From Nitrospirota bacterium (GTDB taxonomy: Bacteria > Nitrospirota > UBA9217), in contig CAVVUN010000015.1 of assembly GCA_963751455.1 (NCBI GenBank), positions 992,001-1,056,000 of the forward strand: a stretch of DNA of 64,000 bases, read 5' to 3'. Shown here piece by piece: positions 3,701 through 64,000 of this stretch; position 1 is the first letter of the stretch; each line of letters starts with the position of its first letter. The notes under the pieces were generated by a model that saw only the letters and a program-made list of their open reading frames with translations, searched no databases and was not told the DNA's origin. The position numbers were made by a program, and so were the translations under genes.

Positions 3701-3726
3701 GAGGGCGTATGTCGATACGCCCCTAC
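3701..3726. repeat. REP-like hairpin (GGGCGTAT-gtcg-ATACGCCC-CTAC)
   Basis: Inverted repeat ending in CTAC (GTAG on the other strand); related copy inside nifE at 60147-60198. Confidence 0.6.
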
Positions 3727-55547: not shown

Positions 55548-55614
55548 ATTGCGGATTGCACCCTGCACTCGCGTTATGCACTCGTGAACACTGGGTGCAG
55601 GCGGAGTGCGGAAT
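55548..55614. repeat. Element A (55559-55601) within an ATTGCGG heptamer tract
   Basis: CACCCTGCACTCGCG...GGGTGCAGG flanked by attgcggattg and cggagtgcggaat. Confidence 0.8.
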
Positions 55615-57277: not shown

Positions 57278-58783
57278 ATGAAAATCAGAGACCATAGCGA
57301 GCTGTTTAAGCAAAAAGACTACCAGGAGCAATTCGAGCGCAAGAAGGAGTTCGAAAACTGCTGGCCCGCGGAGAAGGTAAAAGAGATCTCCGAGTGGACC
57401 AAGACCGAGGAGTATAAGGAGCTGAACTTCAGCCGCCAGCACATAAAGATCAACCCGGCAAAGGCCTGCCAGCCCCTCGGCGCGGTGTTCTGCGCCTCGG
57501 GTTTCGAGGGTTCCATGCCCTTTGTGCAGGGCGCCCAGGGCTGCGTTGCCTACTTTCGAAGCCACCTGAGCCGGCACTTCAAAGAGCCTTTCGCCGCGAT
57601 ATCGACTTCGATGACCGAGGACGCCGCGGTGTTCGGCGGCCTGAACAACATGCTCGAAGGTCTGGAGAACGCCTATACGTTGTACAAGCCCAAGATGCTT
57701 GCGGTCTCGACGACCTGTATGGCGGAGGTAATCGGCGATGACCTGAACGCCTACATCAGGACCGCGCGCGAGAAGGGCGTGATCCCGCAGGACCTGCCGG
57801 TGCCGTTCGCGCACACGCCGAGCTTCGTGGGTTCCCACATCGTAGGCTATGACAACATGATGAAGGGCATCCTGGCAACGCTCTCCGCGGGCAAGAAGGG
57901 CGAGCCGAACAAGAAGATCAACATCATCCCGGGCTTCGATACCTATACCGGGAACTATCACGAGATCAAGCGGCTGATGGCGCTGATGGGCTTCGAGTTT
58001 ACGCTCCTTGCGGACGTGAGCGACACTTTTGATTCTCCGAACACGGGTGAGTACAAGCTCTACCCCGGCGGCACGCCGCTTAAGGGCGCCGCCGATGCAA
58101 TAAACGCAACAGCGACGATCGCACTCCAGAAGTATTCGATCATGAAGACCACGGATTACATCCAGAAGGAATGGGGCCAGAAGACGCTCGTGGTTTCTCC
58201 GATCGGCATCAGGAATACCGATACGTTCTTTGCTGAGCTGAGCAAGCTTATTGGCAAGCCGATCCCGGCGGAGATCGAGGCCGAGCGCGGCAGGGCAGTG
58301 GACGCCATGGTGGATTCGCACCCGTACGTTCACGGCAAGCGTTTCGCGCTTGTCGGCGACCCGGACGTGCTGCTTGGCATGATGAGCCTCATCATGGAGA
58401 TGGGCGGAGAGCCGGTGCATATCGTCTGCACCAACGGGGACAAGAACTTCGAGGCCGAGGCGAACGAGCTTCTGGCATCCAGCCCATTCGGGGCCAACGG
58501 CAAGGTCTACGCAGGAAAGGACATGTGGCACCTTCGGTCCCTCCTGTTCACCGATCCCGTGGATCTTTTGATCGGAAATTCCTATGCGAAGTTCCTCACG
58601 AGAGATACCGGGACACCGCTTATCAGAGTCGGTTTCCCGATCTTTGACCGGCACCATCTGCATAGGCATCCGATCATTGGGTACCAGGGTGTCATCAACC
58701 TGATCACGATGATGGTGAACACGGTGCTTGACGAATTGGACAGAAATACCGTGGATTCAGCGAGTTTTGATGTGATCAGGTAA
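57278..58783 (+). CDS. nifK: Nitrogenase MoFe protein beta chain
   Basis: INPAKACQPLG, QGCVAY, TTCMAEVIGDD, GFPIFDRH. Confidence 0.98.
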   Translation: MKIRDHSELFKQKDYQEQFERKKEFENCWPAEKVKEISEWTKTEEYKELNFSRQHIKINPAKACQPLGAVFCASGFEGSMPFVQGAQGCVAYFRSHLSRHFKEPFAAISTSMTEDAAVFGGLNNMLEGLENAYTLYKPKMLAVSTTCMAEVIGDDLNAYIRTAREKGVIPQDLPVPFAHTPSFVGSHIVGYDNMMKGILATLSAGKKGEPNKKINIIPGFDTYTGNYHEIKRLMALMGFEFTLLADVSDTFDSPNTGEYKLYPGGTPLKGAADAINATATIALQKYSIMKTTDYIQKEWGQKTLVVSPIGIRNTDTFFAELSKLIGKPIPAEIEAERGRAVDAMVDSHPYVHGKRFALVGDPDVLLGMMSLIMEMGGEPVHIVCTNGDKNFEAEANELLASSPFGANGKVYAGKDMWHLRSLLFTDPVDLLIGNSYAKFLTRDTGTPLIRVGFPIFDRHHLHRHPIIGYQGVINLITMMVNTVLDELDRNTVDSASFDVIR

Positions 58784-58788
58784 ATACG

Positions 58789-58870
58789 CCCCTCACCACA
58801 GCCCTCTCCCCAGAGGGTAGAGGGTGCTGAAAAATTCCTCTCCCCAAGGGGAGAGGATTAAGGTGAGGGG
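58789..58870. repeat. Element B, CCCCTCACC...CCCTCTCCC...GGAGAGG...GGTGAGGGG composite palindrome
   Basis: Terminal inverted arms; related copy at 61336-61420, weaker relatives near 52706-52772 and 54455-54493. Confidence 0.8.
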
Positions 58871-58893
58871 TGCAGTTGTCAAGTTGATTACTT

Positions 58894-59646
58894 ATGATAA
58901 GCGTTATGCATGATATCGCTGTTACAGGCATATATTTCTTTCTGATCGCGCTTCTGTATTCAACGGTCGGGCACGCGGGAGCTTCAGGCTATCTGGCGAC
59001 CATGGCGCTGCTTTCGTTTCCGCCGGCGGTCATGAAGCCGACAGCCCTTGCACTGAATATCATCGTGGCTTTGATCACGACTGTCCGTTTCTACACAGCA
59101 GGTCATTTTTCATGGCGGCTCTTCTGGCCCTTTGCCCTGGCGTCGGTGCCCCTGGCGTTTCTCGGCGGCGGACTGACGGTTCATACGGCGATATACAAAA
59201 TACTCGTGGGCTTTGCCCTCATTTTTGCAGCGGCTCATCTGATCCTTCGAACCAAAGTCGCTTCAGTTGGACCTGAAAAGATCGGCGACCCCGCAGTTCC
59301 CGTATCCATGCTGACGGGAGGCGTTATCGGTTTTGTTTCAGGTATCACCGGGGTCGGCGGCGGCATTTTCCTGAGTCCTGTTCTGATTATGTTGAATTGG
59401 GCGGGACTGAGAAGAGCTGCTGCTGTTGCCGCGGCATTTATTCTCCTCAATTCGATGTCGGGCCTGGCAGGCTATGTTCATAAAGGAGGAGCGTTCCCGG
59501 AGAACATTGCTCTATGGGCTGTTGCCGTAGTTTCCGGCGGATTCATCGGTTCCTCTTTAGGGGCAACAAGGCTCAACAGCCCGGTTTTAAGATTGCTGCT
59601 TGGCGTTGCCCTGATGATGGCAGGGATGAAACTGGTGATGATCTGA
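58894..59646 (+). CDS. TauE/SafE (TSUP) family transporter
   Basis: VGHAGASGY, GITGVGGGIFLSP; multiple TM segments. Confidence 0.85.
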   Translation: MISVMHDIAVTGIYFFLIALLYSTVGHAGASGYLATMALLSFPPAVMKPTALALNIIVALITTVRFYTAGHFSWRLFWPFALASVPLAFLGGGLTVHTAIYKILVGFALIFAAAHLILRTKVASVGPEKIGDPAVPVSMLTGGVIGFVSGITGVGGGIFLSPVLIMLNWAGLRRAAAVAAAFILLNSMSGLAGYVHKGGAFPENIALWAVAVVSGGFIGSSLGATRLNSPVLRLLLGVALMMAGMKLVMI

Positions 59647-59756
59647 AATGGAAGGCCAAGTTTTGATGTAATCGTGTGAGTGAACAAAAAGCAGCCCACT
59701 ATAAACTGCATTAAAAAGTAACAACATAGCGTGGCTTGTACGCCATAACAAACGAC

Positions 59757-59826
59757 TGTAGGGCAAGGCTTTAGCCTTGCTAAAAAAACACCTGAAAAGC
59801 GCGCAACCCTAAAGGGTTGCCCTACA
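59757..59826. repeat. REP doublet, reverse complement of 49750-49831
   Basis: TGTAGGGCAAGGCTTTAGCCTTGC...GCGCAACCCTAAAGGGTTGCCCTACA. Confidence 0.85.
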
Positions 59827-59942
59827 AGAAAAGAATCGGCATCAATACTATTTTGAGCTGGTTTAAGTCACGAAGCCACTAAAAAAACTTTGGGCCTTGG
59901 TGTCCTTGTGGCAGGTATTGTTTTACAAATGTGGAGTTCAAG

Positions 59943-62897
59943 ATGGTTACCGCAATCGACAAATTGACGAAGGATGGTTGTTCCGCGGAAGACAAAGCGA
60001 AAGTGTGTCGCTCCCGGGGCGGAGAATCCTGCGCGTTTGACGGGGCGATGATCGTTCTTCAACCAATCGCCGACACCGCCCATATTGTGCACGGCCCGAT
60101 TGCCTGCTGCGGTAATTCATGGGAAGGCAGGGGAACAAAATCGCGGGTAAAGGCGTATGGACTTGGGCGAGCTCAGCCGAGCCGCAATACGCCCGTACAA
60201 AACGGTTATATGCCCCTGCATCAAATGGGCTTCACGACGGATATGGCCGAGATCGACATCATCTATGGCTCGGAGGAGAAGCTCCTGAAGGCCATCCACC
60301 GGACATATCAGGCCGTACAACCGAAGGCCATCTTCGTATATTCGACCTGTGTAAGCGGGCTTACGGGCGAAGACATCGATGCCGTGTGCAAACGCGCGGA
60401 AGATGAGCTCGACGTCCGGGTGATTCCCGTGAATGCACCGGGCTTTGTAGGGCCGAAGAACCTGGGGAACCGTATCGCCGGCGAGGTTCTGCTCGAACAT
60501 GTTATCGGCACGGCAGAGCCGCCGATCATGACCCATTATGATATTAATCTCATCGGCGAATACAACATTGCGGGCGATCTCTGGCTCGTAGAGCCGCTCC
60601 TTGCAAAAGCAGGCATCAGGATACTTTCCAGGCTCACCGGAGATTCGACCTTCGAGGAAATCACGTGGGCCCACCGCGCGAAGTTGAACGTGGTTGTCTG
60701 CGGCCGCGCCCTCATCAACGTTGCTCGGGAGATGGAGAGAAAATATCAAGTTCCTTATATCGAGGCTTCCTTCTTCGGCAATACGGAAATTGCAAAGGCT
60801 TTGCGGATGATCGCCGAGAAGCTCCGGAAGACAGAAGTCAGTGGACAGAAGTCAGACGAAAACAGCGGGATACAGGAACTTGTCACGAAACTGGTCAGGA
60901 CCGAGGAAAGGCAACTAAAACTCCAGCTTAAATCGTACAAGCATTTACGCGGCAAGAAGGCGATGCTTTATACCGGCGGGGTGAAGAGCTGGTCCTTCAT
61001 CTCTGCGTTACGAGATCTGGGAATCGACGTTGTGGCAATCGGCACGAAAAAGAGCACGGTCGAGGACGAAGAGAAAATGAAGATGATCCTCGGGCCTGAC
61101 GCGCCGCTGGTCGAGGACGTAACGCCGAAGAACCTGCTCAAACTGCTGAAGGAACGTCAAGCGGACATGCTCATTGCCGGGGGGCGTAACCAGTACCTCG
61201 CGGTCAAAGAGGGCTATCCTTTCGTGGATGTGAACCAGGAGCGGCACACAGCCTATGCGGGATATCAGGGCCTCGTCAACCTTGCCGAACAGATCAGCAA
61301 CAGCCTTCGCTTTTACAATGCGAAATGCGGAGTTGCCCCTCACCCCGGCCCTCTCCCCAGAGTGGAGAGGGGGAATGCAAAGACTCCTCACCCCGAGGGG
61401 GAGAGGACAAAGGTGAGGGGGAATCTGAAATCCGAAATTCTGATCAATCCCCTCAAACATTCTCCCTCCATCGGGGCGGCCATGGCCCTCCAGGGGATAG
61501 ACGGGGCCCTCCCGCTTATCCATGGCGCGCAGGGCTGCACCTTTCTCGGCAAGGTGCTCCTGACCAGGCATTTCAGGGAGCCGATCGCGCTCGCATCGAG
61601 CAAGCTCTTTGTCGAGGACGTGGTCATGGGAAGCGAGGAAAAGTTATTGAAAGCCGTTGAAGGGTTCGTCGAGAAGAGCAAACCCGGTATCCTTGGTATT
61701 CTCACCTCGGGGCTTTCAGAGGTAAAGGGAGATGATGTAAAGGCAGTAATCAGGAGACTTGCACCCAGCGGTTACGACTGCTTACGCGAGCCTGCACCCG
61801 GCGACTTCGAGTGCGGCAGCGCGAGAGTGGGGTGTGCAGGGTGTCGGGAGTCGGGAGTCGGAAAACCATTAAGAACGCAGATAATCCATGTTGCGACGCC
61901 TGACTATGACGGAGGGCTGGAGGCCGGCTATGCGAGGGCGGTGGAGGCGGTAATTCAAATTGTGGATTTCACCCTGCACTCGCGCTACGCACTCGTGGGC
62001 GCGGGTGTAAACGGATTGCGGATTGCGGAATCGAGTCAAAACCAGCCTGATGTAATAAGAATAAATCTGCTGGTGGGGCCGCATCTCACGCCTGCCGATG
62101 TTTCCGAATTACGGGAAATCGTCGAATCCTTCGGCATGCGACCGGTCATCCTCCCGGACCTGTCCGCTCTCGATGGAAGCAGGCAGAGTTTTTCTCCTCT
62201 CGCAGCAGGAGGAACGACCCTGGAGGATGTCAGGAGTATGGCCGGTTCGGACTACACCATAGTCTTTGGTGTGAGCATGGAACCTGCGGCGAAGCTCTTG
62301 AGTCGGAAATCCGGCATAGAGTACCAGGTATTCGAGAGCGCAGCCGGTATTGCAGCCACGGACGCATTTATGCAAACGCTTAGCAAAATCAGCGGCACGC
62401 CGATCCCCCGGAAGTATGAACGCCAGAAGCAGGTCCTGATAGACGCCATGCGGGACGCTCATTTTTATTTTGGAGGAACGAAGATATGCATTGCCGTGGA
62501 CCCGGATCTTGCGGTCCAGATCTCTCATGTGCTCGATGAAATGAGCGCCTCAGTTGATCTTGCCGTGATACCGGCCTTATCCGAGGCAGCGGACAGAATC
62601 AGGGCGCGGGACGTGCGTATCAGCGATCTCTTCTCTATCGAGGGCGCATTCGACCTCCTCGTCTCCAACTCGCACGGTGAAAGCACGGCAAAACGGCTCG
62701 GGGTTCCGCTTTATGAAATGGGGTTTCCGGTGTACAAGACGTTCGGTTATACATCAAAAGTGACGATCGGATACCGGGGAACTCTGATGATAATAAGCGA
62801 GATCGCAAGTTTACTGATGAAAAAGCAGACAACTGAGCGTGAGGAGGGACCGGATGAAAATCGCTTTTGCAACGACCGACGGAAAAAACGTAAATGA
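59943..62897 (+). CDS. nifEN: Fused FeMo-cofactor scaffold NifE-NifN with in-frame repeat-derived insertions
   Basis: NifE motifs CAFDGA, HGPIAC, STCV, YTGGVKSWS, DVNQER; NifN motifs INPLKHS, HGAQGC, RHFREPI, GFPV, IGYRG in one ORF. Confidence 0.93.
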   Translation: MVTAIDKLTKDGCSAEDKAKVCRSRGGESCAFDGAMIVLQPIADTAHIVHGPIACCGNSWEGRGTKSRVKAYGLGRAQPSRNTPVQNGYMPLHQMGFTTDMAEIDIIYGSEEKLLKAIHRTYQAVQPKAIFVYSTCVSGLTGEDIDAVCKRAEDELDVRVIPVNAPGFVGPKNLGNRIAGEVLLEHVIGTAEPPIMTHYDINLIGEYNIAGDLWLVEPLLAKAGIRILSRLTGDSTFEEITWAHRAKLNVVVCGRALINVAREMERKYQVPYIEASFFGNTEIAKALRMIAEKLRKTEVSGQKSDENSGIQELVTKLVRTEERQLKLQLKSYKHLRGKKAMLYTGGVKSWSFISALRDLGIDVVAIGTKKSTVEDEEKMKMILGPDAPLVEDVTPKNLLKLLKERQADMLIAGGRNQYLAVKEGYPFVDVNQERHTAYAGYQGLVNLAEQISNSLRFYNAKCGVAPHPGPLPRVERGNAKTPHPEGERTKVRGNLKSEILINPLKHSPSIGAAMALQGIDGALPLIHGAQGCTFLGKVLLTRHFREPIALASSKLFVEDVVMGSEEKLLKAVEGFVEKSKPGILGILTSGLSEVKGDDVKAVIRRLAPSGYDCLREPAPGDFECGSARVGCAGCRESGVGKPLRTQIIHVATPDYDGGLEAGYARAVEAVIQIVDFTLHSRYALVGAGVNGLRIAESSQNQPDVIRINLLVGPHLTPADVSELREIVESFGMRPVILPDLSALDGSRQSFSPLAAGGTTLEDVRSMAGSDYTIVFGVSMEPAAKLLSRKSGIEYQVFESAAGIAATDAFMQTLSKISGTPIPRKYERQKQVLIDAMRDAHFYFGGTKICIAVDPDLAVQISHVLDEMSASVDLAVIPALSEAADRIRARDVRISDLFSIEGAFDLLVSNSHGESTAKRLGVPLYEMGFPVYKTFGYTSKVTIGYRGTLMIISEIASLLMKKQTTEREEGPDENRFCNDRRKKRK

Positions 62898-63249
62898 ACA
62901 CTTCGGGAGAGCAGGGATGTTCGCAGTATATGAAATCTCGAAAGGCAGATGCAATTTTCTCGAAATGAGGAAGTTCTCTGACGGCATGGACAGGACTGTT
63001 GTGGACACGAAAGACATGGGACCCCTGCATGACGATGCCGTTCAAAGCAAGGTAGATCGACTTGCCGATTGCAAACTGATCTATGTGACGGAGCTTGGTG
63101 GGCCATCCGCTGCCCGGCTGGTAAAAAAGGGGATTATGCCTATGAAGGTAAAAGAACCTGTCTCGATTGATGGCGCGCTCAAATTGTTAGGAGAGACGAT
63201 CACGAAGTCGCCCCCGCCATGGCTCAGGAAGGCTTTAACGAATCTGTAG
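62854..63249 (+). CDS. nifX: NifX cofactor carrier
   Basis: MKIAFAT..G..VNEHFG, GGPSAARLV, PPPWLRKA. Confidence 0.92.
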   Translation: MKIAFATTDGKNVNEHFGRAGMFAVYEISKGRCNFLEMRKFSDGMDRTVVDTKDMGPLHDDAVQSKVDRLADCKLIYVTELGGPSAARLVKKGIMPMKVKEPVSIDGALKLLGETITKSPPPWLRKALTNL

Positions 63250-63323
63250 CCGCACCCTTCAGGGTGCGTATGAAAGCGCAGGCTGAAGCGACTCGACTGA
63301 GCTCGCCGAAGTCCTGCGGCTAC
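63245..63323. repeat. REP doublet with a nested 24-bp element (63290-63313)
   Basis: GTAGCCGCACCCTTCAGGGTGCG...GCAGGCTGAAGC[24 bp]CTGCGGCTAC. Confidence 0.8.
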
Positions 63324-63349
63324 CAATCAAAATCAGGAGGTAACAATAA

Positions 63350-63667
63350 ATGAAGATGATAAGAGCATTTATTCGACCGGAAAAAGAGCAGGAAGTGGTG
63401 CTTGCGCTCGAGGGAGCAGGGTTCCCATCGCTGACCAAGATGCCCGTATTCGGCCGCGGGAAACAGAAGGGACTCACCATAGGGCCGGTCCATTATGACG
63501 AGTTGCCGAAAACGCTGATCATGACCGTGGTGGACGATCAGGACGAAAGCAAGGTGCTCAAGATCATCCAGGACAAGGCACGCACAGGGTTCATCGGAGA
63601 CGGCAAGGTATTTGTAAGCCCGGTGGACCAGGCGTATACGGTCAGGACCGGCGAGGTGGGTCTATAA
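63350..63667 (+). CDS. nifI1: P-II family nitrogenase regulator NifI1
   Basis: MKMIRAFIRPEK, GRGKQKG, YDELPK, GDGKVFV, VRTGE. Confidence 0.85.
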   Translation: MKMIRAFIRPEKEQEVVLALEGAGFPSLTKMPVFGRGKQKGLTIGPVHYDELPKTLIMTVVDDQDESKVLKIIQDKARTGFIGDGKVFVSPVDQAYTVRTGEVGL

Positions 63668-63671
63668 TTTT

Positions 63672-63778
63672 GCCACAGAGATCACAGAGATCACAGAGAA
63701 AAAAAATGATATGAGTATTAGGTTGATCATTCTTCAGGTTTTCGGGGTCCTCTCGGTGACCTCAGTGTCCTCTGTGGC
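63672..63778. repeat. Imperfect inverted repeat of 9-nt units (CACAGAGAT)
   Basis: gccacagagatcacagagatcacagag ... ctcggtgacctcagtgtcctctgtggc. Confidence 0.75.
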
Positions 63779-63802
63779 TATTAATCTGGAGGTTTCACAG
63801 CC

Positions 63803-64000
63803 ATGAAGGAAATTACAGCTATAATCCGCCGGGACAAGCTCCCGGAAACGAAAAAGGCGCTGGATGACCTTGGTTTTCCGTCGCTTACGATACAGAGCGT
63901 TGACGGACGGGGCAAGCAGAAGGGCGCGATGTGCGCCGAGATGGACTCGGAAATGCCGGACAGTTATTGCACCGCGGTCAAGCTGAAGCCGACGCCGTCC
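63803..64000 (+). CDS. nifI2: P-II family regulator NifI2 (3' truncated by window)
   Basis: MKEITAIIRRDK...GFPSLT...GRGKQKG after GGAGG. Confidence 0.8.
   Translation, partial: MKEITAIIRRDKLPETKKALDDLGFPSLTIQSVDGRGKQKGAMCAEMDSEMPDSYCTAVKLKPTPS

Follow-up and report, generated by a model that had tools for sequence, protein, structure and literature searches.

Repeat elements in frame at five loop-coding sites of a fused nifEN gene of a Nitrospirota bacterium

How can the gene of a nitrogenase cofactor scaffold stay open while carrying, at five places, DNA built from repeats that are dispersed over its genome? This question is raised by the fused nifEN gene (59943..62897, + strand) of a Nitrospirota bacterium, in a stretch of 64,000 nucleotides referred to here as the window (assembly GCA_963751455.1, contig CAVVUN010000015.1, positions 992,001 to 1,056,000). 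A preliminary description of this DNA had proposed that five in-frame segments of nifEN are repeat-derived, and that repeated invasion of the gene had been filtered for events that keep the frame. We located all five segments in a single open frame of 984 aa, whose start Met is shared by relatives. They are repeat DNA, set in frame where an otherwise intact nifEN encodes five loops; they were likely built up in layers by a mobiliser, likely persist as frame-breakers were purged, and are predicted to be translated as disordered, near-neutral loops. The elements belong to dispersed repeat families, relatives have had the same loops filled independently, copies within genes have lengths that are multiples of three (3n), and the core of the protein is conserved.

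The element boundaries of site 4 were read by hand. Site 1 (60147..60198, + strand) holds the remnant of a 28-nt palindrome resembling repetitive extragenic palindromes (REPs), with halves at 60147-60160 and 60185-60198. It had been described as a REP hairpin related to the intergenic palindrome at 3701..3726 (no strand assigned). The REP origin stands, but a nested 24-nt unit that splits the palindrome, element C (60161..60184, - strand), had been overlooked; another copy of C lies behind nifX (63289..63312, + strand), nested in another palindrome. The GTAG tag of such REPs is seen in the copy at 3701-3726 and is degenerate at 60147, and a single other copy of the REP type of site 1 was found, at 3703. 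Among 17 checked of the 33 Y1 transposase matches in the genome, no REP-associated tyrosine transposase (RAYT) flanked by this REP type was found; two of the 17 have other GTAG palindromes on both flanks. Site 2 (60829..60856, + strand) is a degenerate tract of heptamers, and its loop has a length that is usual in the lineage. Site 3, the linker between NifE and NifN (61317..61442, + strand), contains element B (61336..61422, no strand assigned), an 87-nt double palindrome flanked on both sides by heptamer remnants, whose fold has a z-score of about -6 to -7 against base shuffles. A related copy of B lies behind nifK (58789..58870, no strand assigned).

Element A occupies the last two sites, in both orientations. 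At site 4, an outer copy of 43 nt, in two pieces, encloses an inner variant of 44 nt (61791..61834, - strand), the whole covering 87 nt (61757..61843, - strand). As previously described, these are nested reverse copies encoding a Cys-rich peptide: the composite, which lies in an AGGAGTC-type tract, contributes four Cys, with a CxxC motif at residues 631-634. Nested composites of this inner type were found seven times genome-wide. Site 5 holds a 42-nt copy of A (61970..62011, + strand) inside a four-unit TTGCGGA-type tract, again as first described, and an intergenic copy between nifH and nifD (55559..55600, + strand) also lies inside a heptamer tract. Excision of each unit keeps the nifEN frame open. 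Dispersed relatives had been claimed for four of the five segments, and were recovered at 96% identity over 28 nt for site 1, 83% over 86 nt for site 3 (58788-58870), 82% over 95 nt for site 4 and 88% over 65 nt for site 5. Searched against the genome by BLAST, the segments of sites 1 to 5 gave 8, 3, 20, 56 and 66 hits, self included.

We compared the gene with its homologues. From 87 loci we obtained 61 full open reading frames (ORFs), 51 of them distinct; the 26 left out comprise 13 partial contigs, 5 loci with separate nifE and nifN, 2 intact genes missed by the motif, 4 with scattered error-like frameshifts and 2 with a single break in a loop. A second set of 119 further homologues (120 with this one) overlaps the 51. 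The site 1 loop measures 7 to 27 aa in the 51 sequences (median 7) and 27 aa here (rank 1), and that of site 4 measures 13 to 47 aa (median 15) and 47 aa here (rank 1). Only these two are the longest of their kind, none of 116 and none of 108 other parsed homologues, respectively, being as long. The site 5 loop (13 to 45 aa, median 20) has 36 aa here. Site 2 had been counted among the five insertions, but its loop (13 to 42 aa, median 21) has 26 aa here, rank 7 of 51, so that it is an old heptamer tract and not an insertion special to this genome. For site 3 the presence of element B was confirmed, but the linker is long in all relatives (19 to 70 aa, median 29; 42 aa here, rank 3). Outgroup loops are shorter than those seen here, which answers the concern that relatives lacking these families might have equally long ones.

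The five loops are lineage-wide hotspots, so the locus is less special than first supposed. Of the insertions of at least 3 aa in the 119 homologues, all but one fall at the five sites or the termini, and the loops of sites 2-5 show heptamer periodicity in 17, 22, 27 and 18 of the 51 sequences, as against 1 of 1859 core windows. Site 5 is the clearest case: the four-unit tract is empty in L034 (L numbers denote loci of relatives) and carries A in L001, L009 and L038, while at least four other elements occur there in L004/L005, L006, L017, L060/L061 and L062. The three A copies differ in register, frame and variant and are scattered on the core tree (FastTree), the separating nodes having local support of 0.88-0.95. 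Smaller inserts of 3-12 residues, in part REP-like, occupy site 1 in at least eight of the other sequences. In other NifEN genes, four copies of A are 42 nt long by hand count, and the fused NifEN of PDB 9i0g also has extra residues at site 2. As had been claimed, nifH, nifD and nifK are free of such elements: we found no internal indel of more than two residues here or in 15 closer relatives of the 18 compared, the exception being three outgroup NifD proteins, near the N-terminus. From one relative to another the loop peptides vary in both sequence and frame, as would suit passengers that are tolerated; a role for the new loop sequence is not supported.

At site 4, the close relatives L034, L036 and L037 (branches of 0.03-0.04) carry different whole tract types, flanking codons included, and the same two types are met repeatedly over the tree, as if tracts had been replaced, or had recombined between lineages, at that site.

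We then asked whether reading frame constrains the copies found in genes. Of the 149 nhmmer hits of element A, 15 lie within predicted genes, and 128 could be parsed for length. By a rule for the element tail, 10 of 11 in-gene copies were 3n, compared with 40 of 117 intergenic ones; with a cruder length rule, applied first, the counts were 8 of 11 and 29 of 117 (p=0.002). The sole in-gene copy that is not 3n is the inner one at site 4. No gene broken by A or C was found among 162 loci, the screen having failed to pick up several in-gene copies already known. Coding-like DNA lies on both flanks at 15 of these loci, 9 of which are inside ORFs and 6 between distinct genes. Together with the refilling of the same loops in relatives, the excess of 3n copies upholds the proposal of repeated invasion filtered for frame.

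Elements A and C insert precisely into other repeats, without target duplication. When the flanks of A were joined, the resulting sequence recurred elsewhere in the genome at 83 of 122 sites, compared with 22 of 122 for mismatched flanks, and at 116 of the 122 sites at most 1 nt is common to the element end and the upstream flank. Features of MITEs (miniature transposable elements with inverted repeats), namely target-site duplication and terminal inverted repeats of 15-30 bp, were not found for A, which has a 5-bp terminal stem followed by a tail. Its copies show 97 compensatory cells, against a mean of 26 and a maximum of 37 in 500 shuffles. The changes affect seven or more pairs, and the wobble pairs are biased towards the reverse strand (195 versus 36). 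RNAalifold gave weak consensus folds for A, so that its structure stands on the pair counts. Covariation and strand-biased wobble pairs together point to a folded single-strand intermediate, which we infer to be RNA more likely than DNA; single-stranded DNA handled by a Y1 transposase is the less probable alternative. Guide-like covariation between A and its target was not detected: the best value was 0.21 bits, while permutations reached up to 0.23. The genome has six reverse transcriptases, none of them linked to A as its mobiliser. One copy of A (C2:443057-443097) is found some 350 nt upstream of a match to reverse transcriptase (C2:443449) and may be inside a group II intron.

Within the family, 12 of 27 genomes have the exact A motif, as against none of 123 others in the phylum. 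Its count is highest here, 54 hits, against 0-18 in the 27 family members. Four A motifs were seen on two viral contigs (L173-L176), a possible route of spread.

To examine whether NifEN remains intact around its inserts, we analysed the conserved core. Its dN/dS relative to the five closest of 18 relatives is 0.067-0.084 over 723 codons, compared with 0.031-0.079 for NifK and 0.020-0.028 for NifD, and its root-to-tip distance is 0.554 against a median of 0.570. We took the ligand and contact residues of Azotobacter vinelandii NifEN from a portion of PMC13031127 and numbered the residues here by hand count. C30, C55, C136, C253, Q432, R63, K370 and C532, the equivalents of A. vinelandii Cys37, Cys62, Cys124, Cys250, Gln419, Arg70, Lys357 and NifN Cys44, are invariant in 49 sequences, while A. 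vinelandii Lys252 is replaced by Arg255, itself invariant in the lineage. As far as these values can show, the core is under purifying selection and not the relaxed selection that would mark a decaying gene.

The inserts are predicted to be disordered. In an AlphaFold2 model, the predicted local distance difference test (pLDDT) falls below 50 at residues 70-88, 302-307, 461-495, 615-643 and 678-701, which covers all five sites, and at both termini, and the sites are placed between secondary-structure elements, consistent with the proposed location in loops. The halves of the model match solved NifE (template modelling score, TM, 0.91; 2.5 Å) and NifN (TM 0.86; 2.0 Å). In the model of a relative with few inserts, low confidence is seen at site 1 and the linker but not at sites 2, 4 and 5. 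Low confidence at residues 56-64 was considered as a sign of damage by site 1 and rejected, since an insert-free relative is equally uncertain there (54-59 and 61-74). Superposition of the whole-chain model on the fused GmNifEN 9i0g gave a root-mean-square deviation of 26 Å though each half fits; possibly the linker connects different pairs of subunits in the tetramer, or else the modelled arrangement may be wrong.

These data are compatible with a layered process. A tolerant turn would first acquire a short heptamer tract, and a tract or palindrome would then serve as a landing pad for B, REP-like and other palindromes, within which the micro-elements A and C would land, A moving as a folded single strand, probably of RNA. 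Selection would retain only stop-free, frame-keeping events where the fold tolerates them, and the protein with its inserts would still mature the cofactor. The composite of site 4 either moved as a unit or went through a frameshifted state. A bolder proposal is that A represents a new class of minimal mobile RNA: a hairpin of 42-45 nt with wobble and tandem G-A pairs that targets other repeats, inserts without duplication and travels as a nested composite, and that together with whole-tract swaps it drives a standing diversification of loops at the five NifEN sites, supplying new sequence, here Cys-rich, for selection. We regard this full proposal as doubtful.

Several points weigh against the layered, frame-filtered reading. 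Translation of the inserts is a prediction from DNA. Since gene calling relied on open frames, part of the 3n result is inherent, and the tail rule behind the count of 10 in 11 was chosen after the data had been seen. The A copies of site 4, at 43 and 44 nt, are individually not 3n, and the screen for broken genes was incomplete. Of the six stop-free frames among 63 metagenome A loci, none was 3n by the plain rule and five had no family match; the sixth is valS (L210:1-840), with A in frame inside a heptamer tract and 45 nt long by the tail rule. The covariation control overstates, since A copies are related to one another. Recent relaxation would be invisible in the dN/dS values because dS is 1.5-2.0, near saturation, and NifEN has a terminal branch of 1.6 times the median, compared with 1.4 times for NifK and 1.0 times for NifD. 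Site 1, the riskiest insert, adds 20 residues 4-5 positions after the inner L-cluster-contacting Arg, where no other homologue adds more than 12. In two relatives a loop contains a break, a stop in site 4 of L075 (6090-6290) and a frame-breaking tandem duplication at the linker end of L085 (4260-4560); these breaks are either real damage or assembly errors, and because of them the loops appear to carry some cost. Finally, nifEN and the cobalamin genes described below are hit but nifHDK are spared, a contrast that the codon-bias proxy for expression did not explain.

Some of these points would also be expected if selection on nifEN, or on nitrogen fixation as a whole, had recently relaxed, the insert load, especially site 1 and the site 4 composite, then marking early decay or a partly impaired protein. 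This NifEN is the longest of the 51 distinct homologues (the rest have 850-950 aa) and of the 120; site 1 adjoins the Arg70 equivalent, the site 4 composite could mean a transient frameshift, and the somewhat long terminal branch, an odd C-terminal tail and the two broken relatives point the same way. However, the core dN/dS of about 0.08 is like that of NifK, the root-to-tip distance is normal and the ligands are invariant. Moreover, nifH, nifD, nifK, nifX, nifB and a homocitrate-synthase-like gene are present and open, this genome has the most A copies, and purL, carB, nuoG and mutL carry inserts too. We therefore consider relaxed selection improbable.

Co-option of some loops is a still weaker candidate. 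The Cys-rich loop of site 4, for example, might bind metal, or loops might tune contacts with NifB, NifX or NifH; four Cys are indeed added to an Fe-S scaffold and the same loops have been struck repeatedly. Yet the site 4 peptide is unique to this genome, none of 108 homologues having a loop as long, relatives use other elements and frames, and the loop is predicted to be disordered, which makes a function of this kind quite improbable.

The covariation of A, which is RNA-like, and the strong fold of B could alternatively mean that the inserts are lost at the RNA level or passed over in translation, leaving a mature protein without them. Frame should not matter in that case, whereas the copies in genes are 3n and free of stops, and no gene broken by one was found. 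Furthermore, A occurs in both orientations within nifEN, and a scan of 58700-64000 against Rfam gave four weak hits, all under the gathering score and none within the five sites. Like the preliminary description, which had ranked removal at the RNA level lower, we judge it very unlikely.

A 176-nt contig of a sequencing run (X2) is identical to 61822-61997, from the end of site 4 to the start of site 5, and two DNA runs (share 0.05) matched as scattered pieces, without the joints. Pasting of repeat copies into nifEN during assembly is the least likely explanation of all: although the C-terminal tail may reflect a homopolymer error, sites 3-5 are only 82-88% like their nearest copies, each insert is precise and in frame, the X2 contig just mentioned comes from another run, and independent assemblies show like inserts at the same sites.

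Insertion of repeats extends well beyond nifEN. A de novo survey of the intergenic regions yielded 98 overlapping repeat consensus units, which makes this genome rich in small repeats. Besides the copies of A, it contains 22 copies of C by mismatch search (five shuffled C patterns each gave 0 hits), 17 left-arm copies of B and 20 heptamer tracts like that of site 2, 14 of them outside genes. Among 3479 predicted genes of at least 450 nt, obtained with a custom gene caller, 62 contain within them a segment that matches four or more intergenic regions, and nifEN comes first with four such segments. It is thus the extreme of a general process, and the analogy drawn earlier with Rickettsia palindromic elements (RPEs), which are found in frame in unrelated conserved genes, holds in this respect. 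NCBIfam hits at 1e-25 were obtained for 30 of the 45 genes scanned (44 of the 62 and one more); family-matched hosts include purL, carB, nuoG, mutL, hypF, rsmE, tilS, queC, rfbB and six cobalamin genes on contig C9. Low expression as the cause of nifEN targeting was rejected with a codon-bias proxy: the 62 genes have a median percentile of 0.51 (Kolmogorov-Smirnov p=0.61), and nifD (0.15) ranks below nifEN (0.25).

The cobalamin operon (C9:84468-96417, L088) is a second hotspot, again in cofactor biosynthesis. Its genes cobB/cbiA, cbiC, cbiD, cbiET, cbiL and cbiH carry A, B or C in frame, and all five copies of A measure 42 nt. In relatives, one loop of CbiL forms a series: empty, with a tract, with B, and with A or another 24-nt unit within B.

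Two candidate partners of the other repeats were rejected. Four-helix-bundle genes gave nine matches, but none of eight loci checked has heptamer tracts on both sides and two have one on one side; as for a DUF559 nuclease gene and element B, the only such gene is flanked by a different G/C-tract palindrome.

By the features tested, the inserts are neither RPEs nor MITEs. RPEs are dispersed palindromes that keep the frame of the unrelated and seemingly functional genes into which they are inserted (Ogata et al. 2000/2002, as cited in passages of PMC10969869 and PMC3733652), with a unit of about 150 bp that encodes a conserved peptide (same passages of PMC10969869). The repeats described here likewise add peptide segments to unrelated genes; however, their units measure 24-87 nt, the families nest in each other and in heptamer tracts, and the peptide varies with frame and strand. 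Intragenic GTAG/CGTC REPs give inserts of 20-30 aa, sometimes two per gene (uvrA of O. terrae) or at a similar site in relatives (recB of Xanthomonas), according to part of PMC3733652. Site 1 derives from a palindrome of that kind, but the ends of A and C lack a GTAG or CGTC tag, and five sites in one gene are reused throughout the lineage.

The small dispersed repeats (SDRs) of Nostoc (Elhai et al. 2008, Genome Res 18:1484) reportedly measure 21-27 nt, insert precisely in heptamer tracts and in one another, undergo compensatory changes and are not known to have a mobiliser. Judged by these features and not by sequence, the elements described here resemble them in precise insertion into heptamer tracts and own copies, and A in its compensatory changes. 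C, with 24 nt, falls in the size range, whereas A, mostly 42-45 nt, is outside it and was found in one Nitrospirota family only. Precise insertion of SDR5 is reported in a section of PMC4390886. Heptamer arrays occur within genes of Geobacter metallireducens (excerpt of PMC2700814), and long simple-sequence repeats have been described (Mrazek et al. 2007, as cited in an excerpt of PMC4679880); the tracts described here have other units, appear to serve as landing pads, and exchange unit types at the same loop.

As for the protein, its fold and ligand residues are those of fused NifEN (NF011047; GmNifEN, PDB 9i0g/9i0h) and of A. vinelandii NifEN (3pdi, 9onk; portion of PMC13031127). The NifE-NifN fusion is common to this gene, NF011047 and GmNifEN, but the present protein is about 65 residues longer than 9i0g. 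The fused ORF passes the cut-offs for NifE (TIGR01283, 550 against 505.1) and NifN (TIGR01285, 413 against 326.8), and scores 959 against a cut-off of 1229 for NF011047 because the match is split. We found no report of such inserts in NifEN in the literature, subscription papers and supplements being outside the scope of the search. In-frame repeat insertion is already known and the event itself is unsurprising. About 170 natural NifEN sequences (the overlapping sets of 51 and 120) nevertheless amount to an insertion scan useful for nitrogenase engineering, with five tolerant sites, one of them near an L-cluster contact, and a fusion linker of 19-70 residues. With 149 copies, empty orthologous sites, covariation and a patchy distribution in one family, A makes the mobility of elements shorter than 50 nt testable by phylogenetic profiling.

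The genome comprises 5.72 Mb in 15 contigs, the window sitting on a contig of 1.72 Mb, and the nearest named relatives of the nifEN gene are uncultured Nitrospirota. The cluster runs nifH, nifD, nifK, a TauE-family gene, fused nifEN, nifX and two P-II genes, followed by a GNAT gene, nifB, a ThiF-family gene and the homocitrate-synthase-like gene. All these genes are open, and NifB scores 334.8 bits, slightly below the cut-off of 343.65. A sixth oddity of nifEN, overlooked in the preliminary description, is its C-terminal tail (62820..62897, + strand), which follows a run of five A and overlaps nifX by 44 nt. After its last GY.G motif the protein has another 38 aa, where the mode is 16, and long tails occur in five other homologues too. 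One extra A in the run would end NifEN at the normal position, so the tail is possibly a homopolymer error of the assembly. The TauE/SafE-family gene between nifK and nifEN (window 58894-59646) encodes a membrane protein. Between the two P-II genes (window 63673-63790) lies an inverted pair of tracts with a period of 9 nt, which has about 40 relatives in the genome.

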